From a virus (Duplodnaviria > Heunggongvirae > Uroviricota > Caudoviricetes): a stretch of 64,000 nucleotides of DNA. A program made the position numbers and the translations under genes. The notes beneath the pieces are model-generated. The model was not told the DNA's origin and searched no databases. It saw only the letters and a program-made list of their open reading frames with translations. The stretch is from positions 32,877-96,876 of IMG/VR virus record IMGVR_UViG_3300047163_000032. One strand, 5' to 3'. Of the stretch, positions 32,308 to 59,700 are shown one piece after another. Numbering within the stretch: the first letter of the stretch is position 1; each line of letters begins with the position of its first letter.

Positions 32308-32974
32308 CAAGTGGCCCTACCAGACTGATAAAGTAGCTCTTCTTCCCTACGAGCGCAAAAACCTCGTCTTCCCGGACGATTTGCTCTACAAAGCCTACCT
32401 AAAGACCAAAGAGCAAAATCTGCTTGAGGTCGCCTTCCCTGGAATCCCCGACATCAACTTCGACAAGTTCATGGGTTGCATGTTGAGAAACGCGACTCAG
32501 GTGTACACCGTTAAGAATGGGGATGAACCGATTACGGCCGGTTTATGTTTCGTCTACAACGTGGATGGAGAGCCCGGAGCACGGATGGCCCACTTCGGTT
32601 TTTGGTTTTTCAGAGAGTGGCAGGCCAAGAGAGAGACGCGAGATTTGGTGTGGCTGTGTCTGGCGTACTGGTTTCTGGAGTTGAAGATCGACATCTTGTA
32701 CGGGGTGACTTTAGCCTCGAATCACCTTGCCAAGAACTTTTCCCGGAACTTTGGATTTATCAATCATGGGGTGATGCCTGAATTTCTTTGTCGCGGAGAT
32801 CATCGAGTTGATGCTAACGTTGTGTCATTGCGGAAATCGGACTTTGTACCACGGTTTGATGTCTGGCACAAAAAGAAATTGGCGGAGATGAACAATGGGC
32901 AGCACCAAGGGCGGAACGTCATCGACTCAAAAGAGCGAGAAGGGCATCGCTCAGGATTTGACGCAGAGTTTTAA
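32300..32974 (+). CDS. putative GNAT-family N-acetyltransferase
   Basis: C-terminal segment ILYGVTLASNHLAKNFSRNFGF resembles GNAT motif A/B (..N..A..F..K.GF). Confidence 0.45.
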   Translation: MFDKWPYQTDKVALLPYERKNLVFPDDLLYKAYLKTKEQNLLEVAFPGIPDINFDKFMGCMLRNATQVYTVKNGDEPITAGLCFVYNVDGEPGARMAHFGFWFFREWQAKRETRDLVWLCLAYWFLELKIDILYGVTLASNHLAKNFSRNFGFINHGVMPEFLCRGDHRVDANVVSLRKSDFVPRFDVWHKKKLAEMNNGQHQGRNVIDSKEREGHRSGFDAEF

Positions 32975-41200: not shown

Positions 41201-44200
41201 TCTCGCGCTAAAAGGTTCGACTCCAAAGCAGACGCGATCTCGTGGGCGGTTGAGAACAAGGATAACGTTCACGGACTGCAAATCTGGCAGACCCCGGACG
41301 GCAAAGCGTTTTCAATCTTTGTTCCCAAGTCTCCAGACACGCTCTTCCAGATGGAGCCGATGAACCGCGAGGATGCGGAGCGGAGAGTCGCCGAAATCCG
41401 TCGCAAGATGAATCTTCCAGAATTCGCATTGATGCGCGGTCGGATGAAGGACGACATCAAGCGGTTGGAGGACAAGTTCTACCTGAGTGGGCCAGCGCTT
41501 ATCAATGTCAAGCCGGGGGAACCAAAGCCCGGTATTCAACCGTTCACGACTATCCCTGAGTTTAGGGAGAAGCCAAAGCCAATCAACCTGTTCCCGGAGG
41601 AGGATAGCAATGCAAGGCAATCAAGCGGACTACTTGAAAGACCTGTTCGGGTTTCAGACGGTGGCCGAACTGGAGAAATGGATGAGCCAGCCGTCCGACC
41701 CGGAAGTGAACAAAAGGATGAAGCCGCCAGAGATGGAGATGGAGGACGAACTGGACAAGAGGATCGAAGAAGTCGAGAAGTTCGGCTATTAGACGTTCCC
41801 GATATCCAAGTCTCGCCCATCATTACCTTTCGAGACAGACCTGTTACCCAAGAGGAGCAAAAAAGTTGGGATGAGCGGAGCGAACGGTTCGGGCTTTCGG
41901 TTGGCTTGCCTGTGCCTGAAGTTTCCGTTGCTCCGCACATTGCGGCGCAACTGTCGATTGGCGGTCAAGTCGAAACGGTGAACACCCTTGCCACCGCCCT
42001 GAAACGAACAGATGGGGCAATTCTTGCTACGCCGACGGGCACTGGAAAGACTTACGTTTTGATGGCGCTACTGCGTCATTTGCACGACGAAGGCAAAGCG
42101 CGGAAGACTGTCACGATCACCAGCAGCAATGAAGTCATCAACCAAAAGCGCGGTTTTCTCGATGTGGCAAAGAATGTATTCGGCGTTCCGCTCAAGCAAC
42201 TTGATCCCAAGCTGAGAAACGTGCCAGACGGCCACTACGTGACGACGTGGGCCATGCTGCGGGAGAACCCTAATATCAAGTTGAACAATTGGGACTTGGT
42301 GATATTTGACGAAGCGCAAAACGCTCGCAATTGGACTGAGAGCCAACAGGGGTCGATAGCTAAGGATTTAGGCAAACTATCAAAGAAAATCGTTTGGTCG
42401 TCCGCAACTCCTTTTCATACCGGTTTGGAGCTGGGGTACATGGATGCGCTTGGGTTGTGGCGCGATAAGGGATTTCGCGAGTTTGCCAAGCAACTTGGAG
42501 TCGGTCAGAACAAGGAAGGGGGATGGTACGACAACAGCGATCCTAAGAAAATGCTGAAACTGAATCAGCAACTCGTGGAACGCGGTCAGATGGTTGGCAT
42601 CGACATGGACTACTCCGGCTACCATGCCAATTTCCTCCAGATTCCTTTAACCGCCGAGCATCAGCAGACGATCAGGAACGTCAATCAGGCGTTCGAGTTT
42701 GCCTATCGCTACTACAGCGTGAGGGAGGGAGGCGCGAACATAGTCAACAGCCTTAAAGCAGAGCAAGCAAACTTTGTTAAATCGCTAAACGACCGCATGA
42801 AACTTCCAGCGTTGATCGAGAGGATCAAAGAAGCGAACAAAGCTGGATATCGGACGGTAATTTTCTCCGACACCTACGCGGCAAAGACCGAAATGCCGAA
42901 TCGGTTGAAGGTGGTTGATGAGTTGATGGGCGGAAAACTGTCTGAGTTGTGGCCGAAAGAACTCCCCGGAGTGATGCAGGAATTGAAGAAGGGGCTTGGC
43001 GACAAGGTAGGGAACTTTAGCGGCGGAAACGAAGGAGGACTTGATGACCGAGGAAGGAGAGTTAGCTCCGACGCGCAATCGGTCAGAGACCTACGGGCAT
43101 GGCAAAACGGAGCATTAGACAACCTCTACAGCAGCTACGCCAAGGGCGGAACCGGCGTGAATATGAACGACACGGTTGGCGAAAAGCCTGTGATGGCTTT
43201 CTATCTGGGGTCTCCGTGGTCCGGAGTGGCGTTCCAGCAAGGCGTAGGGAGACCGTACCGCTACGGAACAAAGTCGGATGTTCAAGCCGTATTTTTGACC
43301 ACCAACGCCCGGTCTGAAGCGCGATTGATGTTGACCAAGGTTGCTCCGAGATTGGAAAAGCTGAAGGCCGGGGTTAACGGGGTTGAAAACGATCCAATGG
43401 TCGCGGCGATGCGAAAGTTGGATTCCGTAAGACACGATGTTGCGGCTTACGAAATAGGCCAAGAGCATAAATTCGAGGCCAATGACTTTGCTGTGACCGA
43501 AGAAATCCCTGTGATGAACCATAAGCAGTGGGTGATGCCTCATTCGCGGGAGATGATTGGCCCAGACAAGGGCATGAGGTATCCAGGCGGACAGGATTGG
43601 AAACCGGGCGTACTGCATCTGTTTCAGGCAGACGGCTCTCTGTATCAGGGAGGTTTTGATTCCATCGATTCGGACAAGGCAAAGCGGTTTACCGCCGACG
43701 TATCGAAAGACTTGGCCGAGGGAAACACTCTTCCGGGCGTAGGGGATCAGTTGTCGGATTTAGACCCCGGCGACAGGAGAGTGAAGGCGGATCAGATCGG
43801 CCCGGTTGTGACCGACATCGTGGAACGGATGGAGACGGACAACAAACAGGCTGCGGCTCGGATGGAGTACGAGAACGGGCTTCAGGAGTTGTTGGCGGCA
43901 AAGAAGGCCAACGAGATTCAGGCTACCCGCGAGGGATGGAAATGGACGCGCAACAAGGACGATGGTGGCGACAATAGCGACGGGGGAACCACAGGAGGAG
44001 CGCCGTCTTACAAACCAGCGCCGGACGACTCCGATCCCGACAACGTGAAAGTTCACCGGTTGCTTCTTTCCGGGCGGTTGAACCTTGAGAACATCGGTCG
44101 CCAATCCGGATCTTGGGAACAGGGCAAGCACCTCAAATGGATGAACGACCGCTACGAGACACGGAACGACAACTATCTGGGGACGCTCCAGACGATGATG

Positions 44201-46117
44201 TACGACGCGATCAAGGGGTTGAAGGACAAGGACGCAAGAGTTTTCTGGATGGTCAAAGAAGGCAAGATGGCGGCACCGGACGAGCGTATCGCCAAGGCTG
44301 TCGAAGCCTACACCAAGTACACGGATTATGTGCGCGAAGAAGGCGCTCGTCTTGGGGTAAAGACCTTCTTTGGAGCGAACGGGGAAATCTTGTGGAGCCA
44401 AATCGCCAACGACCCGAACTACATGCCGCACTACTTCGATTGGAACGAGAAGCACACGATGGTCAACCCGGACACCGGGGAAAAAGTAACCTTTACGTTG
44501 AACGACCTGCTTAAAGGGCAAACCCTTTCCGACATTGCTTATCAGAAAAACATCGAGACGTTAAGTAAAAACATCGGATGGGACAAGTCAAAGATCGAAG
44601 ATTGGCTGCAAAAGAAAAAGAAGTCCTACCGGGTCAAGGGCAATATCGAACGGGCGAGAGAAGCCGACCTTCCGCTCTATCGCATGGATTTCCATGCGCT
44701 TCACCAGTATGCTGCGGCTGCGGCTGAAGCGTTTGCCAGAACCGAAGTTTTCGGCCAGCAGCTTGAAAAACTGGATGCTCAAATCGCGCTGATTCCAAAC
44801 CCCAAGGGACGCGAGGTTATTAAGGGGTTGTTCGATGAACGGTTGAACCCGGAGCGGTGGGGGCCGAGGGACGGCAATTTCTACAAAGCGGTGACGACGG
44901 CGGAAATCGGTATGAAGATGGCGTTCTCGGCGGCCAAGCTGCCGGGTCACTTGGCGCATCAGGTTGTGGCCTCAGAGAACCTTGGGGCGCTCATTAAAGG
45001 CATTCTGAAGACTGCGGGCAGCCTAAAGGAAGCGGAACGCTCAGCAAGCCTGTCAGGGGCCATAGGAAGGCATTCCTACGCAATGGCTCAAGTCGAAGTT
45101 GCCAAAAGCATGAAGTTGAGCAACATTTTGCTAGGGAGCACCGGGTTCAACTGGGTGTACAAGCTGGATCGGATTATGAGTTCCGCCGCATCGCGAATCG
45201 ACATGGAGCAGCAATTGTTGCCGGAACTGAAAAGAGGAGGCAAGGACGAGGCCCACGCCAGAAGGATTCTTCACGACAACTACAAACTGTCGCATGAGGA
45301 AATCGATATGGCAAAGAATCTCGGCAGGTTCACCGATGAACAGATACGCATCGGACAGGCGGGGATGGCAAACACGGTTCTGTGGACTTCAAGCCCGATG
45401 GAATTGCCCCCGGACATGCGCGGCAAACCGGAGGGCATCCGCGAGGTTTTCCGTGTGATGACGGTGTTGAAGAGCTATATGTACAAGGAAATCATGTTCC
45501 AGAAGGAACAGATTTACGATCAGGCGCGTCAGGGAAACTGGGGACCGCTGAAATACGCGGCGCTCTTCTTCCCGATTGTTGGACAACTGATTCAGGCATC
45601 CACGGCGGCGTCGAAAGATGTGGCGTTTGTTCCGTACCGGGCCGCTAAAGGTACCCAGCAGGGAAGCAATACCAAGAAGTATTTGGACAAATGGGCGAAC
45701 CTGTACGCGGAAGTAACCGGGGACGATTCGATGGCGGAAAAGGCCGGGCATTTGATTAACTTCTACATTGATTCGTACACGGCGTTTTCAGCCCTTCGGT
45801 TGATCGGCGAGGTCTCGGACGTATTTTTGAACCCGAGCAAGAAAAAGAAGCAGCAGATGTATCGAATGAATGTGGCACTGCCTTCGGATTTTGCTGAAGA
45901 AATAGCTGGCATTGCATTCTCGGATATTGGCAGAACCTTGAAGACTTGGGTGATCGACGAGGCCGGACGCGGAACATGGCAGGACGGGGAAAAGCTGCAT
46001 AAAGCGAGGGTAAAGGCGGCCGAGAAATGGCTTGGCGACCTGATTCCTTGGATGCGTCCGGCGTTTGAGGCCCCGCCAAAGGATGCGGTCAATACAAGCG
46101 GTTGGGCAAAACGATAG
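35237..46117 (+). CDS. giant polyvalent protein (3626 aa) with SF2/SNF2-type helicase domain and HExxH zincin-like metallopeptidase motif; candidate injected anti-defence/ejection protein
   Basis: Helicase motif I ATPTGTGKTY (~nt 42037), motif II VIFDEAQN (~42304), SAT-like WSSATP, motif VI QQGVGRPYRYG (~43234); HExxH VLHEFFHVM (~nt 40153); N-terminal PPKTLP repeats. Confidence 0.7.
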   Translation: MPVDNTNPPKTLPPDFDNWDKPSGKPPKTLPANFSGWDKPAPTRSTGIGEMPALPQRKLDPLERAGQYLFGKPQEMQPPPQSAFDKNKAWAQSGTYKTALEPAEEQRFQAWVKQNNVPWQDTPDADYDMRGYWKAQQSGDKNAKQSKNANDGKMHFPDTYKTPYHKSFSNESQYALPNAPKWNDQDQLVDSTGKVVFDERHPMPEATGNLQSYDEGVVGKTLRRIGELPTGTGVNLKTAWDRLWGGSEGEIDRRQAHRERINAESSANAGLLEGVPLEIPGIGYIDAGKTLKAAAAVTEGVGENLSDQMMNPGNLALMFAGPARGLVAAESEVAPIAGKVEKTLGTLAHYGFTAQMTYGAGQAAVASGQAFAKGDYESGLRLAVDGLVSGTMAFAGVTDAIAQKRVHDQLNTEAQARYKAPFDKLEPHEKADVVYQAAMKSPMGIDLQRAHREGLRPPPKSVSDELAQRVQDDLEQQRQRLGALANQDVDEDTLEADRRYREGIGKVSADGREVPPVKPEGYDDRQRALPAFPTIWEASADRKAREQRESEAKAENDKRIDEQYTQRIRELTRPRERVEPYILDVPVLSEAERKIMRQEEAEHQARLALAREQAIEAQQKADAERRAQDGEKPQPYSVIDRRAVPLESIQNEVAKAPDTPEILAHKKYTDDLDSAASSITNGRFGAETLHEQLTNRIAYGYKPTPEEQDFRSMYARRRHFERSPEFAKYATEVVAKIDRDAAQDILKTAARESELRDAERAFREKALQATDPEEIDQHMQDAMKAREYAEKAQTEREHRQAELAAAQEPEQVIPNRGNVNVLLGRKTEIILPDGRKIPARYAGVRVSQVIPSHDPFSFEWNEKFEPRKMQPRDYKTNLEAQASLMTRSKRENFILSLLVSDDPTGQQGFPVMLSDGRLPGGNGRFIAEVRAMQEDPTLARRIHAELGKFDIPTEDTFDDQDPIIGVRLLDYTPEDVSDLIKLGSDLNRDFMLGMSQDEQASMNAERLTPENVERISGWLESMPEGSSLKDMFKRRSKQVLDLMVESGIIPENKRVEWMNSDGTEMTERATTTFENMMLGKAVGDPALLSQASADIRNKLARSLTGWIKIQGASDDWQIQSNLQEALRIWHQIETVKPELSMIGKSSDSIVDKFFHPEKYKMGTGFMDFGDDQGVRPLPDSTTLAIVQMLDRIPLHVKRMVEDYADDAEGLQASLMERPSPVESFNRAIGEKVGVEVHPAEWKMTRPLDEGTKRLWDQNQRPVKEAPEKAPEAKKELTPPPTKEKGLKPPPAAKKGELVPPPQPISKAVQKKLDQLPVTGAVKGASQSLALGKVGNDIGKVTAAIQQAWQGIPELQDAYTQARENAIRQPTPENIANAEQAKANLSWKLGDVHALETHKAWLDSLPAGALDPAPEILQSGKTQSVSSEVLANYAKLNSGATITGNGTVKAVEVDGRLFTVVSAGKDGLTMVPLYTPKEWGNRIKGKTVSAENGYRGYKVKFKGKDYILGGRESEWKLTRGESSEEQEFKIGTAFRKGQPVSSDQLRTFLEDHPNTSKYADALMRVLTEVMPRATGKTLDEFIRDHVDNVAFYKEQDFRDQFPESRMAKSENTVRGMMAPAVDPAKRVIMLFEKSQPATVLHEFFHVMRPNLLPEYQAVLEDFAGVEKVKNAKGELVPDWTIEAEEKVARAWEKYHYDGKAPTSALKAVFDHLKELFHSVYKIVKKSAIDVKISPAVREMFDQWYGKEPQELKPPPPKPYDSNELNTLADSLRSASTQPLTVRVVRWEVPSNETISGGTWALIHNDAADSNNPYTKSFGESRVEKKTTVTLRRPLAVEIGNLDANNTESISNSIIEKLAPFANDGVTSVQDMESLIQGDNDEFVEESLGIPKGTIERGRKAQDASGANDAIAVELLRTNGYDGAVQIPQGGGVNAEVIVLDRSAFDNKPKTKGIKAPPPSSLSTDITPQERESASMVADGGADISTRLGESRAKRFDSKADAISWAVENKDNVHGLQIWQTPDGKAFSIFVPKSPDTLFQMEPMNREDAERRVAEIRRKMNLPEFALMRGRMKDDIKRLEDKFYLSGPALINVKPGEPKPGIQPFTTIPEFREKPKPINLFPEEDSNARQSSGLLERPVRVSDGGRTGEMDEPAVRPGSEQKDEAARDGDGGRTGQEDRRSREVRLLDVPDIQVSPIITFRDRPVTQEEQKSWDERSERFGLSVGLPVPEVSVAPHIAAQLSIGGQVETVNTLATALKRTDGAILATPTGTGKTYVLMALLRHLHDEGKARKTVTITSSNEVINQKRGFLDVAKNVFGVPLKQLDPKLRNVPDGHYVTTWAMLRENPNIKLNNWDLVIFDEAQNARNWTESQQGSIAKDLGKLSKKIVWSSATPFHTGLELGYMDALGLWRDKGFREFAKQLGVGQNKEGGWYDNSDPKKMLKLNQQLVERGQMVGIDMDYSGYHANFLQIPLTAEHQQTIRNVNQAFEFAYRYYSVREGGANIVNSLKAEQANFVKSLNDRMKLPALIERIKEANKAGYRTVIFSDTYAAKTEMPNRLKVVDELMGGKLSELWPKELPGVMQELKKGLGDKVGNFSGGNEGGLDDRGRRVSSDAQSVRDLRAWQNGALDNLYSSYAKGGTGVNMNDTVGEKPVMAFYLGSPWSGVAFQQGVGRPYRYGTKSDVQAVFLTTNARSEARLMLTKVAPRLEKLKAGVNGVENDPMVAAMRKLDSVRHDVAAYEIGQEHKFEANDFAVTEEIPVMNHKQWVMPHSREMIGPDKGMRYPGGQDWKPGVLHLFQADGSLYQGGFDSIDSDKAKRFTADVSKDLAEGNTLPGVGDQLSDLDPGDRRVKADQIGPVVTDIVERMETDNKQAAARMEYENGLQELLAAKKANEIQATREGWKWTRNKDDGGDNSDGGTTGGAPSYKPAPDDSDPDNVKVHRLLLSGRLNLENIGRQSGSWEQGKHLKWMNDRYETRNDNYLGTLQTMMYDAIKGLKDKDARVFWMVKEGKMAAPDERIAKAVEAYTKYTDYVREEGARLGVKTFFGANGEILWSQIANDPNYMPHYFDWNEKHTMVNPDTGEKVTFTLNDLLKGQTLSDIAYQKNIETLSKNIGWDKSKIEDWLQKKKKSYRVKGNIERAREADLPLYRMDFHALHQYAAAAAEAFARTEVFGQQLEKLDAQIALIPNPKGREVIKGLFDERLNPERWGPRDGNFYKAVTTAEIGMKMAFSAAKLPGHLAHQVVASENLGALIKGILKTAGSLKEAERSASLSGAIGRHSYAMAQVEVAKSMKLSNILLGSTGFNWVYKLDRIMSSAASRIDMEQQLLPELKRGGKDEAHARRILHDNYKLSHEEIDMAKNLGRFTDEQIRIGQAGMANTVLWTSSPMELPPDMRGKPEGIREVFRVMTVLKSYMYKEIMFQKEQIYDQARQGNWGPLKYAALFFPIVGQLIQASTAASKDVAFVPYRAAKGTQQGSNTKKYLDKWANLYAEVTGDDSMAEKAGHLINFYIDSYTAFSALRLIGEVSDVFLNPSKKKKQQMYRMNVALPSDFAEEIAGIAFSDIGRTLKTWVIDEAGRGTWQDGEKLHKARVKAAEKWLGDLIPWMRPAFEAPPKDAVNTSGWAKR

Positions 46118-50989: not shown

Positions 50990-51065
50990 GCTCCACTAGC
51001 CCAGAGGCAGAGGCAGCCGATTTAAGATCGGCTCAGGCCCGGTTCGAATCCGGGGTGGAGTACCA
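50990..51065 (+). tRNA. tRNA, anticodon TAA (nominally Leu) but class I architecture (5-nt variable loop), CCA encoded
   Basis: Manual fold: acceptor gctccac/gtggagt, anticodon arm gccga-tttaaga-tcggc, T arm cccgg-ttcgaat-ccggg, A73. Confidence 0.6.
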
Positions 51066-51178: not shown

Positions 51179-51751
51179 TTGGGTATGAAAACCCCGATTC
51201 GCTATAGCGGCCCATATTTATACGCATCTGGCAAGTGTGTAGGCCGAAAATATATGACGGTTTACTACTCGGATGGCTCCAAGGGGACCACGCTCTATAG
51301 TCGCTACCTGATGCAACAACATGTTGGCAGGGAGTTACTGAAGTCTGAGACGGTAGATCATGTAAACGAGGACAAAACGGATGACCGCATCGACAATTTT
51401 CAGATATTGAGTCTTGCGGCGAACGCTTCGAAAACTTCGAGGAAGCGATTCAAAATAACGTGGCACTACTTCAATTGTCCTCAGTGTGGTAAGCATTCAA
51501 AGAAGAATGCTAGGCAGGTTAGACATAATCGGAAGCAAAACAAGTCCGGGCCGTTTTGCAGTAGGAGTTGTTCGAGGAGGCATCAGGCGGGTCAACAGGG
51601 GTGTCAGGAAGTTGTATGTGGAACCAATGCGATGTACGGGCGAGGGTGTCGCTGTAGGGAGTGCAAAGATGCACACAATGTAGTAGTTAACGAGTGGAAG
51701 ATAGTTCGTAAAGTGGGCGGTTACTCAAACTGGAAAAGAGAAATGCCTTAG
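51179..51751 (+). CDS. HNH homing endonuclease
   Basis: TTG start per ORF track; HNH motif VDHVNEDKTDDRIDNFQILSLAANASK plus C-terminal Cys-rich zinc-binding region; stop codon lies in anticodon loop of next tRNA. Confidence 0.75.
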   Translation: MGMKTPIRYSGPYLYASGKCVGRKYMTVYYSDGSKGTTLYSRYLMQQHVGRELLKSETVDHVNEDKTDDRIDNFQILSLAANASKTSRKRFKITWHYFNCPQCGKHSKKNARQVRHNRKQNKSGPFCSRSCSRRHQAGQQGCQEVVCGTNAMYGRGCRCRECKDAHNVVVNEWKIVRKVGGYSNWKREMP

Positions 51752-51791
51752 GAGCATTTATTTGGGGGTTCGAGTCCCTCACCGCCTACCA
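51715..51791 (+). tRNA. tRNA, anticodon TAG (nominally Leu) but class I architecture; overlaps 3' end of HNH gene
   Basis: Manual fold: acceptor gggcggt/accgcct, D stem ctc/gag, anticodon arm aatgc-cttagga-gcatt, T arm ggggg-ttcgagt-ccctc, A73, CCA. Confidence 0.55.
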
Positions 51792-53703: not shown

Positions 53704-53794
53704 TGGTGAGTACCCGAGGGGAAGCAGGGAGCGCACTGTTAATGCGTTGGGGAGCAATCCCCCGTCGTGTGTTCGAATCACACCTCACCAGCCA
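53704..53794 (+). tRNA. tRNA with anticodon GTT (nominally Asn) but class II architecture (long variable hairpin), 91 nt with CCA, G73
   Basis: Acceptor tggtgag/ctcacca, anticodon arm gcgca-ctgttaa-tgcgt, variable hairpin gggga-gcaa-tcccc, T arm gtgtg-ttcgaat-cacac. Confidence 0.5.
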
Positions 53795-53827
53795 ATATGT
53801 TAATCGAACCATGATAAAATATGGTTC

Positions 53828-54595
53828 ATGCAAGGCAATAGAAACCGCCGAAGCCCCGTTTGGAAGATGAGTCCAGAAGAGTTTAAGGCGTTGGTTGCGA
53901 GAAGCCAAAGCATAAAGCAAATGCTCGAATTTTTCGGGCTGCCGACCGCTGGTAATAGCTACAAGACTCTCATAAAAAGAGCAAAAGCGGATGAAATAGA
54001 CTTGTCAACCCTACCATCTTTGCAGCCCGGTGGCAGGGTGAGGTTAATGCAAGTCGGGCAAAAGAGGGCAAGGCCGTTAGCCGAGCTACTTGTGGCGAAC
54101 AGCACTCGCGATAACACCTACCTAAAAAAGCGAATGGTGGCAGAAGGGATATTGGAAAACAGGTGCTCGATCTGTGGGCTTGGAACAGAATGGAACAGCA
54201 AACCGCTTAGCCTAAGGCTCGACCACGTAAACGGAGTAAATAACGACAACAGGAGATCGAACCTCAGAATGGTTTGCCCGAACTGCGACAGCCAGCTCGA
54301 CACATACTGCGGAAGGAACCGAGTAAAGAACAGGCGAACTATCAAGAACTGCATGGACTGCGGGAAAAGATTGAGCAAGCACGCCGGATTAAGGTGCAGA
54401 ACCTGCAACATTAGACAGCAGCCCAAAGCATTCAAGATCGAATGGCCTAGTGACGACGAACTTGTAGCGATGGTCTCAAAGAAGAACAATTCTCAGGTTT
54501 CCAAAGCGCTAGGAGTATCCGAGACGGCCATAAGGAAAAGGTTGAAAGGTTTAGGAATTACCCCGAGGCCGTATGCGAGGACACCTAGCCTTTGA
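53828..54595 (+). CDS. HNH homing endonuclease
   Basis: HNH motif LRLDHVNGVNNDNRRSNLRMVCPNCDSQ plus multiple CxxC zinc knuckles. Confidence 0.75.
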   Translation: MQGNRNRRSPVWKMSPEEFKALVARSQSIKQMLEFFGLPTAGNSYKTLIKRAKADEIDLSTLPSLQPGGRVRLMQVGQKRARPLAELLVANSTRDNTYLKKRMVAEGILENRCSICGLGTEWNSKPLSLRLDHVNGVNNDNRRSNLRMVCPNCDSQLDTYCGRNRVKNRRTIKNCMDCGKRLSKHAGLRCRTCNIRQQPKAFKIEWPSDDELVAMVSKKNNSQVSKALGVSETAIRKRLKGLGITPRPYARTPSL

Positions 54596-54705
54596 CTGCT
54601 GTACGCTGAAACCCAGACCCGACTGACGGAGGCAGGGGCCAGTTTAGTAGGGTGGCTTAGCGGCTACCCGAAGTCTGGATATAACGTATGGTGGTTCGCG
54701 ATTGT

Positions 54706-54779
54706 TGGGCCTTCGGTTAATGGCAAGCCTGCTGCCTCTGGAGCAGCCTATCGGAGTTCGAGTCTCTGAGGCCCAACCA
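54706..54779 (+). tRNA. tRNA-Gln (CTG)
   Basis: Acceptor tgggcct/aggccca, D stem ggtt/agcc, anticodon arm gctgc-ctctgga-gcagc, T arm cggag-ttcgagt-ctctg, A73 CCA. Confidence 0.7.
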
Positions 54780-54787
54780 AGTTTTGA

Positions 54788-54859
54788 TCCGGTGTCGTCT
54801 AGCTGGCAGGATGCAGGGTTTTGGCCCCTGAGACGTGGGATCGTAGCCTACCACCGGAA
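54788..54859 (+). tRNA. tRNA-Gln (TTG), CCA not encoded, atypical T loop (atcgtag)
   Basis: Perfect acceptor tccggtg/caccgga, anticodon arm caggg-ttttggc-ccctg, D loop agctggca. Confidence 0.5.
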
Positions 54860-54871
54860 CTAAAGTTTTTA

Positions 54872-54980
54872 GGCGGAAGTAGCTCAGCGGTAGAGCGCGA
54901 CCTTCAGCCGCAACCAAGACGCCGGGACGGATGTGGGAGGGGGAGCAGTAAAGTCCCGGAATGTGACCCTCCCAAATAAT
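54872..54980 (+). ncRNA. tRNA-like 5' module (acceptor + canonical D arm GTAGCTCAGCGGTAGAGC) fused to a GC-rich pseudoknot-like element; no T arm; unclassified structured RNA or tRNA remnant
   Basis: Interleaved complementary segments CCGGGA/TCCCGG and GGGAGGG/CCCTCCC seen directly. Confidence 0.3.
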
Positions 54981-55054
54981 GCGGGGTTGGTGTAGTAGCA
55001 ACACGTTGCCTTGCCGAGGCGAAATCGCGGATGCAACTTCCGCACCCCGCTCCA
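54981..55054 (+). tRNA. tRNA-Gly (GCC)
   Basis: Acceptor gcggggt/accccgc, D arm gtgt-agtagca-acac, anticodon arm ttgcc-ttgccga-ggcga, T arm gcgga-tgcaact-tccgc, CCA. Confidence 0.7.
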
Positions 55055-55074
55055 TTTTGAAACCGGAGGTCGTG

Positions 55075-55248
55075 ATGAAGAGCACAGAACGGAAGCACCA
55101 GCTAGTTTTGTTAGACACGCGGCTTCGGATTGTTCGCAAGCACGAACAGGCACTCGTGGCGCAAGCGGCGGCGCAGCGGATTCGTATCCCGCAGGATGAG
55201 GTTTCGAGTACCTCCGAGTGCTCCAGTTTGGATGGTGATGCAGCATGA
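55075..55248 (+). CDS. hypothetical small protein, overlaps start of downstream HNH gene (ATGA)
   Basis: ATG after GGAGG; in frame with track ORF 54979..55248. Confidence 0.3.
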   Translation: MKSTERKHQLVLLDTRLRIVRKHEQALVAQAAAQRIRIPQDEVSSTSECSSLDGDAA

Positions 55249-55802
55249 GCAGATTGATGATGAAGCCGGTCCTGATGCTGAATGCTGCATACGAAGCCGT
55301 TCGTATCGTTAGCGTCAAGAGGTCAATGACACTGCTAACGAAGGGAAAGGCCGTCGTGGAGGTGCCTACCGACCGGGAAATATATCCAGGCATCTTCATG
55401 CCATCGGTTATCAGGCTGACGGTCTACCGGAAGGTGCCGCACTGTATGCAGGTATTGAGTCGCAAGAACATCTATCTTCGCGATTCTCGGACCTGCCAGT
55501 ATTGCGGGTTGCCGTTCGGGGATAACCGGTTGACGTTGGATCACGTTATTCCGCAGGCGCAGGGTGGAAAGAGCACATGGGACAATCTCGTTTGTGCTTG
55601 CCAGTCATGCAACCATCGGAAGGCAGATCGGACGCCTGAGCAGTGGGTTGGGGATGGTGGCTGGCCGCTATTGAGGAAGCCGAAGCCCCTTACTGTATTC
55701 ACAAGCAGGGGCTTGGTCAGGACGATGGGGTTAGAGACTCCGGAGTGGAGAAAGTACCTCTACTACGAGAACGATACCCCGCAAGAGGTTGTGCTGGCGT
55801 AG
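55245..55802 (+). CDS. HNH endonuclease (McrA-like)
   Basis: CQYCG ... LTLDHVIPQAQGGKSTWDNLVCACQSCNHRKADR; stop codon TAG abuts next tRNA. Confidence 0.75.
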   Translation: MSRLMMKPVLMLNAAYEAVRIVSVKRSMTLLTKGKAVVEVPTDREIYPGIFMPSVIRLTVYRKVPHCMQVLSRKNIYLRDSRTCQYCGLPFGDNRLTLDHVIPQAQGGKSTWDNLVCACQSCNHRKADRTPEQWVGDGGWPLLRKPKPLTVFTSRGLVRTMGLETPEWRKYLYYENDTPQEVVLA

Positions 55803-55868
55803 CTCAGGTAGACAGAGCACTCCCTTGGTACGGGAGAGGTCGCGACTGCGATGTCGCCGCCAGCCCCA
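55793..55868 (+). tRNA. tRNA-Thr (GGT), T loop only 6 nt
   Basis: Acceptor gctggcg/cgccagc, D arm gctc-aggtagaca-gagc, anticodon arm ctccc-ttggtac-gggag, C73 CCA. Confidence 0.6.
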
Positions 55869-55875
55869 GTTTTAC

Positions 55876-55950
55876 GCATCGGAAGAATACGAGGAGATTT
55901 GACCGGCCTGTACCCGGTAGAAGCCAGTTCGAATCTGGCCCGATGCTCCA
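55876..55950 (+). tRNA. tRNA-Thr (TGT)
   Basis: Acceptor gcatcgg/ccgatgc, anticodon arm accgg-cctgtac-ccggt, T arm gccag-ttcgaat-ctggc, CCA. Confidence 0.65.
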
Positions 55951-55966
55951 CTGTAGATGTAAATGT

Positions 55967-56041
55967 GCGGCCGAACTCAAACGGTGCGAGGTGTGACTGT
56001 GGATCACATTTTAGGTTGTTCGACTCAACCCGGTCGCCCCA
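55967..56041 (+). tRNA. tRNA-His (GTG)
   Basis: Acceptor gcggccg/cggtcgc, anticodon arm tgtga-ctgtgga-tcaca, T arm ggttg-ttcgact-caacc, C73 CCA. Confidence 0.7.
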
Positions 56042-56058
56042 AAAAGTTTGGAGATGCG

Positions 56059-56211
56059 ATGGACGAGAGAATCGTAAGGCTGCTGAAGATGCACGAGGAG
56101 GCGATGGATCGGTTGCCGGTGGTCAAGGCCAAGATTCCGAACGCTTGTGAGGCTATTCAGTACAGCATCGCAAAGTATTATCCGGCGCTGGAGAAGTTGG
56201 CGTCGGAGTAG
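56059..56211 (+). CDS. hypothetical small protein (50 aa)
   Basis: ATG after GGAG; frame of track ORF 55963..56211 whose 5' part overlaps tRNA-His. Confidence 0.25.
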   Translation: MDERIVRLLKMHEEAMDRLPVVKAKIPNACEAIQYSIAKYYPALEKLASE

Positions 56212-56212
56212 T

Positions 56213-56292
56213 GGGTCGCAGGAATACATGGGGTGTTCGCCGCACTTGCAATGCGGATATTCAGCGGGGTTCGATTCCCCGGCGATCCACCA
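56213..56292 (+). tRNA. tRNA-Ala (TGC) with G3-U70 identity pair, 8-nt variable loop
   Basis: Acceptor gggtcgc/gcgatcc (G3.U70), anticodon arm ccgca-cttgcaa-tgcgg, T arm cgggg-ttcgatt-ccccg, A73 CCA. Confidence 0.7.
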
Positions 56293-56299
56293 AAGTTTT

Positions 56300-56375
56300 G
56301 GTCACCAAGCTAATCAGGTGAAAGCGCTGGTCTGAAAAGCCAGATAGCCCGGCCCGATACCGGGGGTGACCACCA
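56300..56375 (+). tRNA. tRNA-Phe (GAA)
   Basis: Perfect acceptor ggtcacc/ggtgacc, anticodon arm ctggt-ctgaaaa-gccag, T arm cccgg-cccgata-ccggg (atypical T loop), A73 CCA. Confidence 0.65.
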
Positions 56376-56381
56376 AGTTGT

Positions 56382-56460
56382 AAGGGTGTAGCGAAGCCTG
56401 GACGAACGCGCCGCATTTGGGATGCGGAGACCGGGGGTTCAAATCCCTCCACCCTTACCA
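56382..56460 (+). tRNA. tRNA-Pro (TGG)
   Basis: Acceptor aagggtg/caccctt, anticodon arm ccgca-tttggga-tgcgg, T arm ggggg-ttcaaat-ccctc, A73 CCA; long D loop. Confidence 0.65.
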
Positions 56461-56468
56461 TCAGTTGT

Positions 56469-56545
56469 GGGGCTATAGCTCAGCTGGACAGAGCGGTCGA
56501 TTACGAATCGACAGGTCGGGAGTTCGACTCTCTCTAGCCCCACCA
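56469..56545 (+). tRNA. tRNA-Arg (ACG)
   Basis: Acceptor ggggcta/tagcccc, D arm gctc-agctggaca-gagc, anticodon arm gtcga-ttacgaa-tcgac, T arm gggag-ttcgact-ctctc, A73 CCA. Confidence 0.8.
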
Positions 56546-56553
56546 TAATTTTC

Positions 56554-56582
56554 TTGACACGGGAAACCGAGATAGATACAGT
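56554..56582 (+). promoter_or_regulatory. sigma70-like promoter TTGACA-17-TACAGT
   Basis: Seen directly. Confidence 0.5.
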
Positions 56583-56730
56583 AGCGACATGTTGACGAGA
56601 GCCATAAGCGGGATGACCAAAGAATCCGGGATTAAGCGGGTCTGGGGAGTCGTGTCCGAGTAGGGGTCAGTCCGACAGTTGGATTTTTCCAATGACCCCT
56701 CGGCTAAGGCCGGGGGATTTTAGTTTTATG
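56583..56730 (+). ncRNA. candidate small non-coding transcript bounded by promoter and terminator, contains hairpin GGGGTCA...TGACCCC
   Basis: No ORF over 30 codons; terminator stem cccctcggc/gccggggg then attttagtttt at 56696-56730. Confidence 0.3.
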
Positions 56731-56760
56731 CTCTTTCTCAATTCGGGATGTAGATTACAC

Positions 56761-56835
56761 AGGGGCGTAAGCTAACTGGAAAACTGCTGGTCTCCAAAAC
56801 CAGACTTGCTTGTTCAAATCAAGTCGCCCCTGCCA
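56761..56835 (+). tRNA. tRNA-Trp (CCA)
   Basis: Acceptor aggggcg/cgcccct, anticodon arm ctggt-ctccaaa-accag, T arm gcttg-ttcaaat-caagt, G73 CCA. Confidence 0.65.
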
Positions 56836-56847
56836 TATAATTTAAGC

Positions 56848-57396
56848 ATGGACAGAAAGGCATACCTAAAAGAGTACGGAGTGAAATGGTACGCAGAGGT
56901 TGTCAAACCAAGGCGCGAAAAGTGGTTCGCCGAGAACGGCCCATGTAGAAAGTGTGGATCGTGGGATCGTCTAGAGTTGGATCATGTTGATCCGGCCACT
57001 AAAGTTCATCACGCGATCTGGAGTTGGAGCGAAAAAAGGCGCTCAGAAGAACTTAAAAAATGTCAGCCGCTTTGCCGTGTGTGCCATAAGAAAAAATCGG
57101 TGGCCTACTTCAAGGAATTTGACGTGAATGGATACAAAAGGATGGTTGGCCCAGCGGGAACCGGATGGTGTGCTAAATGCAAAACCTTTGTTGCGGTCGA
57201 TAAAATCAGTAAGAATAGAACAAACTGGAACGGCTTAGAGCACTACTGCAAGGCTTGCCGAAGTAAAAGGCGCTCTCCTAAGAAGTTTACGCGGTGTAGC
57301 TCAGGTGGCTTAGAGCGCGGGACTCATAACCCCGAGGTCGAGGATTCGAATGCCTCCACCGCGACCAAGTTTCTCTCGCTAAGGTTCCGACCATGA
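56848..57396 (+). CDS. HNH endonuclease; reading frame runs through downstream tRNA-Met with no stop until 57396
   Basis: ATG MDRKAYL in frame of track ORF 56806..57396; HNH motif LELDHVDPATK ... CQPLCRVCHKKK; the last ~35 codons are encoded by the tRNA gene itself. Confidence 0.6.
   Translation: MDRKAYLKEYGVKWYAEVVKPRREKWFAENGPCRKCGSWDRLELDHVDPATKVHHAIWSWSEKRRSEELKKCQPLCRVCHKKKSVAYFKEFDVNGYKRMVGPAGTGWCAKCKTFVAVDKISKNRTNWNGLEHYCKACRSKRRSPKKFTRCSSGGLERGTHNPEVEDSNASTATKFLSLRFRP
57290..57367 (+). tRNA. tRNA-Met (CAT), elongator-type (paired 1-72)
   Basis: Acceptor cgcggtg/caccgcg, D arm gctc-aggtggctta-gagc, anticodon loop ctcataa, T loop ttcgaat, A73 CCA. Confidence 0.7.
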
Positions 57397-57468
57397 CGAG
57401 CGCCTTGAACCTGAAAGGGATCCGCGAGGATGGCAGCAGCCGATGGAGAAGGGGGCGAGAGAATTCAA

Positions 57469-57561
57469 GCTCCCATAGTGTAACGGTTAGCACGGTGGCC
57501 TTATAGACCATTCGCACTAGATCAGTGCTCAGTCTCGGTTCGAATCCGAGTGGGAGTACCA
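57469..57561 (+). tRNA. tRNA with anticodon TAT (nominally Ile-AUA) but class II architecture (long variable hairpin), 93 nt, A73
   Basis: Acceptor gctccca/tgggagt, D arm gtgt-aacggtta-gcac, anticodon arm gtggc-cttatag-accat (4 bp + mismatch), variable hairpin gcact-agatc-agtgc, T arm ctcgg-ttcgaat-ccgag, CCA. Confidence 0.5.
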
Positions 57562-57574
57562 ATTTTTACGGACT

Positions 57575-57602
57575 GCGAGTTCGATTCTCGCCACGTCTAC
57601 CA
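57575..57602 (+). other. orphan tRNA 3' fragment (T arm gcgag-ttcgatt-ctcgc plus acceptor 3' strand cacgtct-a-cca) with no 5' half
   Basis: Only 13 nt separate it from the preceding tRNA, so no room for a 5' half. Confidence 0.4.
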
Positions 57603-57604
57603 AT

Positions 57605-58121: not shown

Positions 58122-58200
58122 GCAGCTATCGTCCAATGGGATAGGGCACCGACCTTCTAAGTCGAGGACAGGGGTTCGAATCCTCCCGTATGCGGCACCA
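58122..58200 (+). tRNA. tRNA-Arg (TCT)-like with defective acceptor pairing; probable pseudogene
   Basis: D arm gtcc-aatgggata-gggc, anticodon arm ccgac-cttctaa-gtcga, T loop ttcgaat present, but 5' gcagcta does not pair with any 3' strand before CCA. Confidence 0.35.
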
Positions 58201-58442: not shown

Positions 58443-58517
58443 GTACCTGTCATCTAGTGGCTAGGATCGCCGCCCGATTAGCGGCAGACGAAGGTTCGAC
58501 TCCTTCCGGGTACACCA
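58443..58517 (+). tRNA. tRNA-Ile (GAT), unusual C33 and U37 in anticodon loop
   Basis: Acceptor gtacctg/cgggtac, D arm atct-agtggcta-ggat, anticodon arm gccgc-ccgatta-gcggc, T arm gaagg-ttcgact-ccttc, A73 CCA. Confidence 0.6.
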
Positions 58518-59345: not shown

Positions 59346-59508
59346 CCCCTTTCCCAGATCGGCGACGAGGGCGGCTCTTTCGAGTCGCCCTTACTGTTTT
59401 GCAAAGATTTTGGAGAAATATTTAAGAAAGATATTGCAAACGGAGTCGCGTGGTAGTAGGATAGATTTCGTTGAAGAGATTGAAAGATCGCCTGATACTG
59501 ATTTGCAT

Positions 59509-59572
59509 ACACGAATAGCTCACTTGGTTAGAGCAATCGATTAATAATCGATAGGTTGTTGGTTCGATTCCA
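59509..59572 (+). ncRNA. tRNA-like element (canonical D arm gctc-acttggtta-gagc and T arm gttgg-ttcgatt-ccaac, anticodon-position loop ttaataa = AAT) with mismatched acceptor and no CCA; pseudo-tRNA or tRNA mimic
   Basis: Manual fold; acceptor acacgaa/ttcgaga has two mismatches. Confidence 0.3.
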
Positions 59573-59700
59573 ACTTCGAGAATACAAGCACATCGACTTT
59601 CAGGCGTATAACATTAAGCGGTACTGGCAAGGCTACATGTCTCCTTTTTCAATAAGGCGTGACAGCCAAAACCTCGCCGACTTCCGCTTGTATAAGATGT

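Follow-up and report, generated by a model that had tools for sequence, protein, structure and literature searches.

Does a long extra arm on a transfer RNA (tRNA) change the amino acid that the tRNA inserts, or does the anticodon remain the guide to its function? The question is raised by a 64,000-nucleotide (nt) stretch of a Caudoviricetes phage genome (IMG/VR record IMGVR_UViG_3300047163_000032, positions 32,877 to 96,876), referred to here as the window. The source phage, of ~97 kb, carries in this stretch an island of 28 tRNA genes, all on the + strand between positions 50990 and 59583 (ARAGORN), with open reading frames (ORFs) for HNH-type endonucleases scattered through it. Two of the tRNAs, with the anticodons GUU and UAU, bear extra arms on anticodons that are normally found on class-I tRNAs. 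This much had been noticed correctly in a preliminary description of the locus, which went on to propose that the two molecules are class-II tRNAs of the Ser and Leu type. The analyses described below favor a different reading, to which a probability of roughly 0.7 is given: both would be functional phage tRNAs that decode by their anticodons (Asn at AAY, Ile at AUA) and belong to conserved extra-arm families, rather than Ser/Leu chimeras. This reading draws on observed structures, conservation, covariation, motif specificity, and codon usage; the synthetases that would charge the two tRNAs and the role of the extra hairpin in the UAU tRNA are proposed.

Both Extra Arms Are Conserved and Covarying Structures

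The two genes and their relevant parts are located as follows.

53704–53794, + strand: tRNA(GUU), 91 nt including CCA (ARAGORN; Rfam; phiKZ-type long tRNA-Asn, family covariation)
53738–53740, + strand: its anticodon GTT (positions 34–36), with U33 before and A37 after (ARAGORN, Rfam)
53749–53762, + strand: its extra arm, a 5-bp stem GGGGA/UCCCC with the GNRA tetraloop GCAA (folding; family alignment)
57469–57561, + strand: tRNA(UAU), 93 nt including CCA (ARAGORN; Rfam; family of at least 180 unique sequences, covariation)
57502–57504, + strand: its anticodon TAT (34–36), in the loop C32 U33 U34 A35 U36 A37 G38 (ARAGORN, Rfam)
57514–57528, + strand: its second hairpin, hairpin B, a 4-bp stem GCAC/GUGC with the 7-nt loop UAGAUCA; GAU at 57520–57522 (alignment, covariation)
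57529–57533, + strand: its retained class-I variable loop UCAGU (44–48), between hairpin B and the T stem (sequence comparison)

Both genes score above the gathering threshold (29 bits) of the Rfam tRNA model RF00005, the GUU tRNA with 44.9 bits and the UAU tRNA with 51.6 bits, with anticodons as in ARAGORN; the model treats the extra 15 nt and 19 nt, respectively, as insertions in the variable region. Unconstrained minimum-free-energy folding gives a five-arm cloverleaf in each case, and U33, A37, the T loop UUCGAAU, and an encoded CCA, as expected of canonical tRNAs, are present in both. The features on which the preliminary description was built were all recovered by ARAGORN, Rfam, and folding, namely the hairpin GGGGA-GCAA-UCCCC and G73 in the 91-nt tRNA, and the long variable hairpin GCAC-UAGAUCA-GUGC and A73 in the 93-nt tRNA. 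Its reservation that automated folding might assign other anticodons was not borne out, as no automated method moved either anticodon.

Covariation among homologues, suggested there as a check, was evident as compensatory changes in every stem of both families, the extra arm included. For the GUU tRNA, the family consists of 15 distinct sequences obtained from viral and metagenome pattern scans (four of the seven matches of the viral scan were chance matches in coding sequence). In its alignment, all cells (100%) are paired and 17 of the 22 pairs have changed on both sides; covariation scores 0.652, compared with 0.174 in shuffles, and none of 500 shuffles reached the observed value. For the UAU tRNA, an alignment of 22 sequences, from a sample collected with no requirement on the hairpin, has 95.4% of cells paired (72.1% in shuffles) and a covariation score of 0.657 (0.179 in shuffles), which again was reached by 0 of 500 shuffles. 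Since each tRNA belongs to a conserved family with compensatory changes, neither is a chance match, and the extra arms on both are real, selected structures.

The UAU tRNA Carries a Hairpin Resembling the Anticodon Arm of tRNA-Ile(GAU)

The body of the UAU tRNA is of class I, with U8 and A9, a 4-bp D stem, an 8-nt D loop, and a canonical T loop. It has G1·U72, A73, and a C31·A39 mismatch, and the second hairpin is inserted between positions 43 and 44. The earlier assignment to class II as a tRNA-Leu, for which a 3-bp D stem would be expected, does not fit this architecture: hairpin B lies 5′ of a complete class-I variable loop, whose 5 nt separate it from the T stem, compared with 1–3 nt in the true class-II tRNAs of the window. 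The relation between long and short forms is apparent from a scan that required only a window-type D arm and a TAT anticodon, and that returned 8 ordinary tRNAs of 72–73 nt and 24 long ones. The short relatives carry the class-I variable loop only, and the long form corresponds to the short form plus 2 nt and a hairpin between position 43 and the unaltered 5-nt loop.

A pattern of the shared features gave matches in at least 120 viral contigs and in 97 bacterial assemblies. Good cloverleaves, for which a viral match had to pair at no fewer than 6 of the 7 acceptor positions and 4 of the 5 T-stem positions of a 7/5 layout, were formed by 117 of the 123 viral matches listed and by 73 of the 97 bacterial ones, nearly all of them with A73 (116 of the 117 good viral cloverleaves). 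In total, the UAU family comprises at least 180 unique sequences from phages and bacterial tRNA arrays; ARAGORN detects 150 of the 180. Its bacterial hosts carry it in tRNA arrays of Acidobacteriota, where it is enriched, and of the Roseobacter group, Azoarcus, and Acidithiobacillus, and a near-identical 96-nt copy is common to ~45 Pyrinomonadaceae species, within dense chromosomal arrays. Some subfamilies have small D arms like those of allo-tRNAs. The few cultured phages that carry the gene have it labelled as tRNA-Ile or unannotated (the latter in two cyanophages). Phages related to that of the window have an extra-arm UAU tRNA at the same slot, in the order Met(cat)-UAU-Lys(ctt), and these copies were missed by ARAGORN and, owing to its filters, by the Rfam scan.

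The bacterial tRNA-Ile identity set consists of A73, C4–G69, A35, U36, and A37, together with G34 or lysidine-34, C29–G41, A38, U12–A23, and G16 (PMC9976931, the source of all identity sets used here). The UAU tRNA has A73, C4–G69, A35, U36, and A37 (GCUC...GAGU-A, loop CUUAUAG). When hairpin B is numbered as an anticodon arm across the 180 unique sequences, a pyrimidine is found at position 32 in 99%, A38 in 86%, C31–G39 in 77%, and C29–G41 in 83%. A33 and G34-A35-U36 are largely set by the AGAT search pattern in this larger collection, yet are invariant in the unbiased sample, where Y-A-G-A-U-N-R occurs in the extra hairpin of 24 of 24 long members. Likewise, AGAU is invariant in the 22-sequence alignment, in which three pairs of the stem have changed on both sides and 18 sequences have a loop of 7 nt. 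In the window copy, the third pair from the loop is C–G, equivalent to C29–G41.

C29–G41 is an IleRS determinant (PMC9976931). In the same loci, this pair is present in 72% of tRNA-Ile(GAU) genes, 12% of other isotypes, and 35% of the true UAU anticodon arms. The AGAU motif is equally specific to these molecules, being found in 154 of 154 UAU extra arms as opposed to 0–5% of Ser, Tyr, and Leu arms. Deletion of the UAU arm (hairpin A) in silico left a class-I cloverleaf that ARAGORN called tRNA-Ile(gat) in 113 of 180 cases. For decoding, the ribosome requires U33 and a purine at position 37; hairpin B has no U33, and its position 37 is variable, a purine not being kept. Judged by its sequence, hairpin B reproduces those parts of the anticodon arm of tRNA-Ile(GAU) that matter to IleRS. 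Neither the hairpin-B motif nor the UAU family, nor the structure of the long tRNA-Asn, was found described in the open-access literature, and a UAU family with a hairpin mimicking the Ile anticodon arm is apparently previously undescribed.

A cleavage site of the RNase E type (RN↓WUU) within the AGAUU loop was weighed as another source of the motif and set aside, as it leaves the conserved C–G pair unexplained. As a separate observation on the GAU isoacceptors themselves, position 33, almost universally U, is C in about one-third of the tRNA-Ile(GAU) genes of these loci (loops UCGAUAA and CCGAUAA); the tRNA-Ile(gat) of the window (58443–58517) has the loop CCGAUUA, with C33 and U37.

The GUU tRNA Has Asn Identity Elements on an Apparently Tyr-like Scaffold

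The GUU tRNA has U1–A72, G73, a 3-bp D stem (CCC/GGG), G13·A22, and the anticodon loop CUGUUAA; its extra arm is flanked by 1 nt (U) on the 5′ side and 4 nt (CGUC) on the 3′ side. Over its full length it is 81% identical to the annotated long tRNA-Asn of phiKZ and 17 phiKZ-like phages. Across the family, the extra arm is a stem of 3–5 bp, capped by a GNRA loop in most of the 15 members and followed by 4 nt, and its two outer pairs covary. (One member, at L296 1311–1398, has an AGAU tetraloop on this arm, AGGC-AGAU-GCCU, probably by coincidence.) The pair U1–A72 is present in 14 of 14 aligned rows, and G73 and GUU with A37 are present in all 15 members.

The bacterial tRNA-Asn set is G34 U35 U36, A37, and G73, with U1–A72 as the determinant for amidation by GatCAB (PMC9976931). 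The window GUU tRNA has this set complete, including U1–A72. In most bacterial tRNA-Ser, G1–C72/C72 and G2–C71 are absolutely conserved, and R4–Y69 and G30–C40 also belong to the set (PMC9976931). Three of these Ser elements, C72/G1–C72, R4–Y69, and G30–C40, are absent from the GUU tRNA, which instead has U1–A72, U4–A69, and C30–G40. In addition, pair 2–71 is C–G in 8 of the 15 family rows, and C2–G71 is a SerRS antideterminant (PMC9976931).

The family resembles tRNA-Tyr instead. Member L018 matches tRNA-Tyr in 5426 of 5426 Escherichia coli genomes and never Asn or Ser (BLAST), and identity of the family to E. coli tRNA-Tyr is 0.63–0.74, in a colinear alignment in which the anticodon differs at position 36 only. 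The Tyr affinity is drawn from these other members and from the alignment, not from the window copy. The Tyr elements A73, G1–C72, and GUA are replaced in the GUU tRNA by G73, U1–A72, and U36, and G73 is a TyrRS antideterminant (PMC9976931). The 3-bp D stem and the D-arm sequence of the family are class-II features. The proposal of a Ser-type class-II tRNA is therefore upheld as far as the architecture is concerned (3-bp D stem, G13·A22, extra arm) and fails for the scaffold: the latter looks tRNA-Tyr-like rather than clearly Ser-like, the window copy alone being close to a tie between Tyr and Ser. The most economical reading is that a phage tRNA-Tyr gene has probably been recruited to Asn.

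In such a recruitment, the D arm, anticodon stem, and extra arm would be derived from a bacterial class-II tRNA-Tyr, position 36 would have changed from A to U, and the discriminator and first pair would have been converted to G73 and U1–A72. AsnRS, or a nondiscriminating AspRS (ND-AspRS) followed by GatCAB, would accept the resulting tRNA, and G73 would repel TyrRS. In Pseudomonas aeruginosa, Asn-tRNA is formed via the indirect ND-AspRS/GatCAB route, which would account for the strict conservation of U1–A72.

A Model with Two Anticodon Arms

Based on the features of hairpin B, a tentative model would regard the UAU molecule as a "two-anticodon-arm" tRNA, with the UAU arm for the ribosome and the GAU arm for IleRS, perhaps via alternative coaxial stacking in the five-way junction. 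IleRS reads G34 or lysidine-34 far better than U34. Hairpin B would be a cis-acting identity handle, giving IleRS its preferred G34-type anticodon arm, while the true UAU arm would read AUA on the ribosome, a task for which hairpin B (A33, variable position 37) appears unfit. AUA could then be decoded as Ile in any host, without TilS/lysidine or a U34-adapted IleRS, and AUA decoding in phages and mobile tRNA arrays would be independent of TilS. The long tRNA-Asn would be a parallel case, a Tyr-to-Asn recruitment by anticodon change and acceptor-end switch. Taken as a whole, the model is a possibility with the odds against it.

Codon Usage and Genomic Slots Agree with the Anticodons

The meaning of the two codon classes was assessed by tabulating the residues in homologous proteins at the positions of each window codon class, using two sets: the ORF for a 1081-aa protein of the phage against 113 homologues, and 23 ORFs against related loci (tblastn). 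Values below are given in this order. AUA makes up 10% of the Ile codons in window ORFs. AUA columns (8 and 26, respectively) hold Ile 36%, Val 18%, and Leu 20% in the first set and Ile 22%, Val 20%, and Leu 19% in the second. The corresponding values for AUU/AUC columns are Ile 33%, Val 25%, and Leu 15%, and Ile 39%, Val 20%, and Leu 15%. Leu-codon columns, in comparison, hold Leu at 47% and 56%. AAY columns (72 and 288) contain 40% Asn in both sets, with Ser at 7.5% and 6.4%; Ser-codon columns contain 33% and 32% Ser, with Asn at 6% and 4%. This composition indicates that AAY is used as Asn and AUA as an Ile-like codon, and it rules out reassignment. The predicted placement of Ser at AAY and of Leu at AUA is not borne out by the columns (40% Asn and 6% Ser at AAY; 19–20% Leu at AUA, versus 47–56% at Leu codons), which are compatible with low-level mischarging.

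The genomic context points in the same direction. The GUU and UAU tRNAs are the only Asn tRNA and the only AUA decoder that ARAGORN finds in the window, and they occupy the Asn and Ile slots of a near-complete tRNA set that is syntenic in nine related IMG/VR contigs. In most of these relatives, the slot of the long tRNA(GUU) holds an ordinary 75-nt tRNA-Asn. At the same slot, L002 has an 87-nt tRNA-Asn whose acceptor stem and T arm are common with the 75-nt allele of L007 and L009, with a GNRA-capped hairpin added in the variable loop. As this hairpin sits on an ordinary-allele body, extra arms on Asn tRNAs arose more than once in the gene pool.

Weighing Mistranslation

Several observations weigh against the assignment of the two molecules as Asn and Ile tRNAs, and they have to be considered together with the alternative put forward in the preliminary description, in which the extra arms would lead to charging by the anticodon-blind SerRS (GUU) and LeuRS (UAU), so that AAY would be read as Ser and AUA as Leu, in a mistranslation that is either deliberate or tolerated. 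The window GUU tRNA combines a class-II D arm with G73, G2–C71, C11–G24, and a 5-bp extra arm, and the latter four elements amount to about half of the bacterial Ser set; on this sequence, some charging by SerRS is conceivable. SerRS also reads how the long arm is oriented. BLAST of the E. coli genomes returned no match to this copy, and its identities to E. coli tRNAs are a near-tie (Tyr 0.68, Ser 0.67, Asn 0.58). In addition, class-II synthetases such as AsnRS approach the tRNA at the variable-loop side, and a long arm could hinder AsnRS.

For the UAU tRNA, the 3′ 33–34 nt are identical to the 77-nt tRNA-Leu(UAG) of Pseudomonas phage Amme-3, and A73 together with the D/T elbow may be enough for LeuRS. 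E. coli LeuRS requires neither the anticodon nor a long arm (PMC9976931), and there is a precedent in a nematode nev-tRNA(UAU) that is charged with Leu (PMC3333845). The true anticodon arm has U34, G29–C41, G38, and C31·A39, and the D arm has G12–C23 rather than U12–A23 and C16 rather than G16. An arm at 43/44 is not obviously at the anticodon-binding site of IleRS, and a handle there needs alternative coaxial stacking or a new contact. Furthermore, most sequences of the UAU family come from the AGAT-requiring pattern, and the unbiased sample consists of 24 long members of one D-arm subfamily. Finally, the AUA test comprises 34 columns, and as an Ile-to-Leu change is conservative, partial mistranslation would be invisible in it. 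Ile and Leu are moreover isobaric, and ordinary proteomics is blind to their exchange.

The Leu resemblance is confined in its extent. All 31 database matches to the 3′ part of the window UAU tRNA are tRNA-Leu, its variable loop UCAGU is identical to that of the Amme-3 tRNA-Leu(UAG), and its acceptor stem has the signature (GCUCC/GGAGU-A73) that marks a widespread family of short phage tRNA-Leu. In a comparison of tRNA bodies within loci, the UAU family has no consistent affinity to either tRNA-Leu or tRNA-Ile, only generic class-I similarity; the Leu resemblance, in acceptor stem and T arm, is peculiar to the copy in the window. The Leu hinge elements A15–U48 and G18G19 are present and A20a is absent; A15–U48 was discarded as a Leu marker, occurring in 10 of the 28 island tRNAs of many isotypes.

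Two further tRNAs of the window, previously counted as additional mismatches between anticodon and scaffold, are relevant here.

50990–51065, + strand: class-I-size tRNA-Leu(UAA) (acceptor GCUCC.../...GGAGU-A73 with G1·U72, as in the UAU tRNA)
51715–51791, + strand: class-I-size tRNA-Leu(UAG) (ARAGORN)

They are no anomaly: in a set of 2,550 unique tRNAs of phages and arrays (303 loci), most tRNA-Leu are of class-I size (74–78 nt), with 59 short genes among 64 for Leu(tag) and 50 among 59 for Leu(caa). The short-Leu subfamily with GCUCC/GGAGU, G1·U72, and A73 occurs in Pseudomonas phages, Streptomyces phages, and the window. Nor do the discriminator bases help to tell the identities apart, G73 being common to Ser and Asn and A73 to Leu and Ile.

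Against mistranslation stand the lack of G1–C72/C72, R4–Y69, and G30–C40 in the GUU tRNA, whose family has an invariant U1–A72 and points to Tyr, and, for the UAU tRNA, the lack of a consistent Leu similarity across its family, the uninformative A15–U48, the absent A20a, and an extra hairpin that carries an Ile-specific motif. The use of AAY and AUA as Asn and Ile-like codons, and the position of both tRNAs in the Asn and Ile slots of the set, are also at odds with it. A proteome-wide effect would be hard to reconcile with conservation in hundreds of phages and bacterial arrays. Ser/Leu mistranslation is the least supported reading, and it is considered very unlikely.

Extra Arms as Possible Shields or Signs of a Non-translational Role

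Asn and Ile identities could also be normal in a setting where the extra arms have nothing to do with charging, and serve as a shield or decoy against host tRNA-targeting defence nucleases or other tRNA-binding proteins, by changing the variable region and hinge through which such enzymes would recognize a tRNA. Retron-Eco7 and Septu PtuAB cut the variable arm of tRNA-Tyr, and the tRNA-Tyr of phage T5 escapes via a different variable loop (PMC11555353, PMC13096335). Sporadic variable-loop hairpins of 3–5 bp, mostly GNRA-capped, were found in Asn, Lys, Gly, Thr, His, Cys, Gln, Trp, and Met tRNAs of phages and arrays, with examples as follows.

L008, 13143–13230: tRNA with a sporadic hairpin
L007, 14521–14604: tRNA with a sporadic hairpin
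L075, L142, L146, L261, and others: further examples

Such short arms, spread over many isotypes, look like repeated, lineage-specific tinkering in an arms race, and the alternation of long and short tRNA-Asn alleles at one island slot would be in keeping with it. They form a generic class distinct from the AGAU hairpin. A shield leaves unexplained why AGAU is invariant and an Ile-specific C–G pair is kept across very divergent phages and bacteria, or why the same UAU tRNA is conserved in the chromosomal arrays of ~45 Pyrinomonadaceae species. No nuclease against the variable region of tRNA-Asn or tRNA-Ile(UAU) was identified in this analysis. Protection by the arms is regarded as unlikely.

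More remote is the idea that one or both genes have no role in translation and are decaying pseudogenes, tRNA-like RNAs (in regulation, toxin-antitoxin, or transposon functions), or a homing-endonuclease scar or immunity allele. A non-translational role was suggested earlier for acidobacterial allo-tRNA(UAU), and in E. coli its variants showed no suppressor activity (PMC5389517). In those experiments, the variants had been converted to CUA and the reporter required insertion of Ser (PMC5389517), so that inactivity would not contradict an Ile identity; the UAU family, with 7/5 stems and A73, moreover fails the definition of allo-tRNAs. The C31·A39 mismatch and G38 of the window UAU copy, the degenerate T loop of the copy in L007 and L009, the label "tRNA-Pseudo-GTT" given to the long GTT tRNA of phiPsa374, and the presence of tRNA fragments in the island could be read as decay. 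However, C·A at 31–39 recurs in 19% of the UAU family and so is no lesion peculiar to the window copy; compensatory changes are found in every stem, most members have canonical T loops, an encoded CCA, and canonical anticodon loops, and the window has no other Asn tRNA or AUA decoder.

The case for an endonuclease origin of the extra arm concerns the GUU tRNA and the gene next to it.

53828–54595, + strand: HNH-like homing-endonuclease ORF, 255 aa, directly 3′ of the Asn tRNA (HNH-type Cys/His motif in the translation)

This ORF has no Pfam match at E ≤ 0.01. Its C-terminal region matches a GIY-YIG ORF (L002, ~1210–2090) beside the long tRNA-Asn of L002 (E 6e-7) and, weakly, the HNH protein gp296 of phiKZ (L011, 2747–3229) beside the phiKZ long tRNA-Asn (E 2e-3). 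In the window, L002, and phiKZ, the long tRNA-Asn thus has as its neighbor an endonuclease ORF with the common C-terminal domain, and in L020 a remnant of an HNH gene lies beside it, but the long tRNA-Asn genes of L016 and L018 stand without an adjacent endonuclease gene. The endonuclease ORF and the long tRNA-Asn are possibly co-mobile. Endonuclease immunity or a scar as the origin of the arm, with an association that is only partial, was not adopted and is kept as a minor rival. Overall, a non-translational role for either tRNA is very improbable, and the reading of both as decoding tRNAs with Asn and Ile identities is retained.

Other Features of the Island and Its Relatives

Three more tRNA-like genes of the window were missed by ARAGORN and score 48.2, 47.5, and 29.8 bits with Rfam (55793–55865, 56300–56372, and 58122–58194, respectively). 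Visual inspection suggests a GGT (Thr) anticodon loop for the first and a GAA (Phe) one for the second, both with unusual T arms. At 59508–59583, ARAGORN finds a tRNA-Ile with the anticodon AAT (Rfam 58.6 bits); A34 is unusual in bacterial-type tRNAs except in tRNA-Arg(ACG). Two apparent tRNA fragments are also present, a 5′ half at 54868–54910 (GGCGGAAGTAGCTCAGCGGTAGAGCGCGACC...) and, between the UAU tRNA and tRNA-Lys at 57575–57604, a remnant of T arm, acceptor, and CCA (GCGAGTTCGATTCTCGCCACGTCTACCA). Both suggest turnover of tRNA genes in the island by recombination or driven by endonucleases. A scan for promoters and terminators gave counts at chance level.

Outside the island, the window has two giant ORFs, of 2873 aa (15770–24391) and 3626 aa (35237–46117). 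A homologue search with the former returned one weak match, so that it has almost no detectable homologues; in the relatives, the ORF at the position of the latter has DEAD, ResIII, and AAA_34 helicase domains. SU10-type portal and adaptor genes are present in relatives of the window phage. Searches for relatives seeded by an SPFH/Band-7 protein gave none, and those seeded by a 711-aa ORF gave only four distant loci.

Two relatives carry two tRNA(CUA) genes each, called "Pyl" by ARAGORN (L007, 2861–2934 and 14039–14114; L009, 3818–3891 and 14996–15071). These genes of the amber-suppressor type may reflect TAG recoding in that branch; the window has none. Relative L008 has a permuted transfer-messenger RNA (tmRNA) at 2437–2729 (Rfam RF04321, 97.5 bits), also called as tmRNA by ARAGORN, with the tag AEDNALPMAA. 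Weak matches to YrlA (Y RNA-like), below the Rfam gathering score, occur in the islands of relatives (L003, 8213–8294; L007, 8308–8437; L008, 8884–8962; L013, 3007–3034), and in Streptomyces phage Alone3 an annotated Ro-like RNA-binding protein adjoins the tRNA cluster. Locus L287 (E. coli TC24, NZ_CP171637.1, 2868881–2869033) is an annotated 153-nt tRNA-Tyr with an insertion of ~68 nt inside the T loop.

Implications

It is important to note that an extra arm on a tRNA whose anticodon is not that of Ser, Leu, or Tyr is not in itself evidence of recoding or mistranslation. The UAU family is large and partly missed by annotation pipelines. If the two-anticodon-arm model is true, the UAU tRNA would be a natural example of physical separation between the amino acid identity signal of an anticodon arm and the decoding anticodon, a new solution to the AUA/AUG problem, otherwise met by lysidine, agmatidine, or a specialised IleRS, and a ready-made design for orthogonal tRNAs. 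As a hypothesis, the surrogate Ile anticodon arm is new and open to direct test. The Asn case, in turn, is probably one of a Tyr tRNA recruited to Asn from the other tRNA class, and it includes phiKZ, a much-studied model phage.

Comparison with Known Systems

The closest relatives of the window GUU tRNA are the phiKZ tRNA-Asn PHIKZ_t02 (NC_004629, 269557–269645) and its copies in phiKZ-like Pseudomonas jumbo phages. The two share the D arm (UACCCGAG..AGCAGGGAG), U1–A72, G73, a GNRA-capped extra arm, and a downstream HNH gene. In phiKZ, the stem of the extra arm has 3 bp (GGC-GAAA-GCC), compared with 5 bp in the window, and the acceptor and T stems differ by compensatory exchanges; a normal 78-nt tRNA-Asn is present in phiKZ as well, whereas the window has the long one only. 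The phiKZ-type group of long tRNA-Asn is known by anticodon annotation only, no study of its structure having been found in the open-access literature, and the window GUU tRNA is a new member of it. With E. coli tRNA-Tyr (tyrT/tyrU), the long-Asn family has in common the 3-bp D stem, the D arm CCCGAG..GGGAG, and the anticodon stem CAGA/UCUG, and L018 also shares the start of the extra arm, CC-GUC...GAC. The differences lie in A73, G1–C72, and A36 of tRNA-Tyr, as opposed to G73, U1–A72, and U36 of the long-Asn family.

The neighborhood of the tRNA genes recalls the free-standing homing endonucleases of phage tRNA clusters, such as T4 SegB (PMC13096335), in that HNH and GIY-YIG genes lie among tRNA genes. 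In contrast to SegB-type systems, the link between endonuclease and long tRNA-Asn is incomplete here and is known from the genes alone.

Long-armed tRNAs with unexpected anticodons have been described in two other settings. The nematode nev-tRNAs (Hamashima et al. 2012, PMC3333845) resemble the UAU family in their extra arm, UAU anticodon, and mismatch between anticodon and scaffold, but are of the eukaryotic class-II tRNA-Leu type and charged with Leu, whereas the UAU family has a class-I body and a hairpin at 43/44 with an Ile(GAU)-like loop. The allo-tRNAs (Mukai et al. 2017, PMC5389517) are recognized by acceptor/T stems of 8/4 or 9/3 and a discriminator of G73 or U73, and they were presumed to be Ser tRNAs. 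Like the UAU family, they occur in bacteria and phages, have long extra arms and anticodons other than those of Ser and Leu, and are enriched in Acidobacteria (PMC5389517). UAU is the most abundant allo-tRNA anticodon, and "five-stem-junction" shapes were described among them (PMC5389517). The UAU family differs in its 7-bp acceptor and 5-bp T stems, A73, and AGAU loop; it is set apart from allo-tRNAs by their published description, and a partial overlap is possible.

Reading of AUA by a UAU anticodon has a counterpart in the tRNA-Ile(UAU) of Mycoplasma mobile (PMC3575796) and of lactic acid bacteria (cited in PMC9976931), which reads AUA without TilS and is charged by IleRS. These natural bacterial tRNAs are ordinary class-I molecules, served by an IleRS adapted to U34, to which architecture the phage and array family adds a GAU-bearing hairpin.

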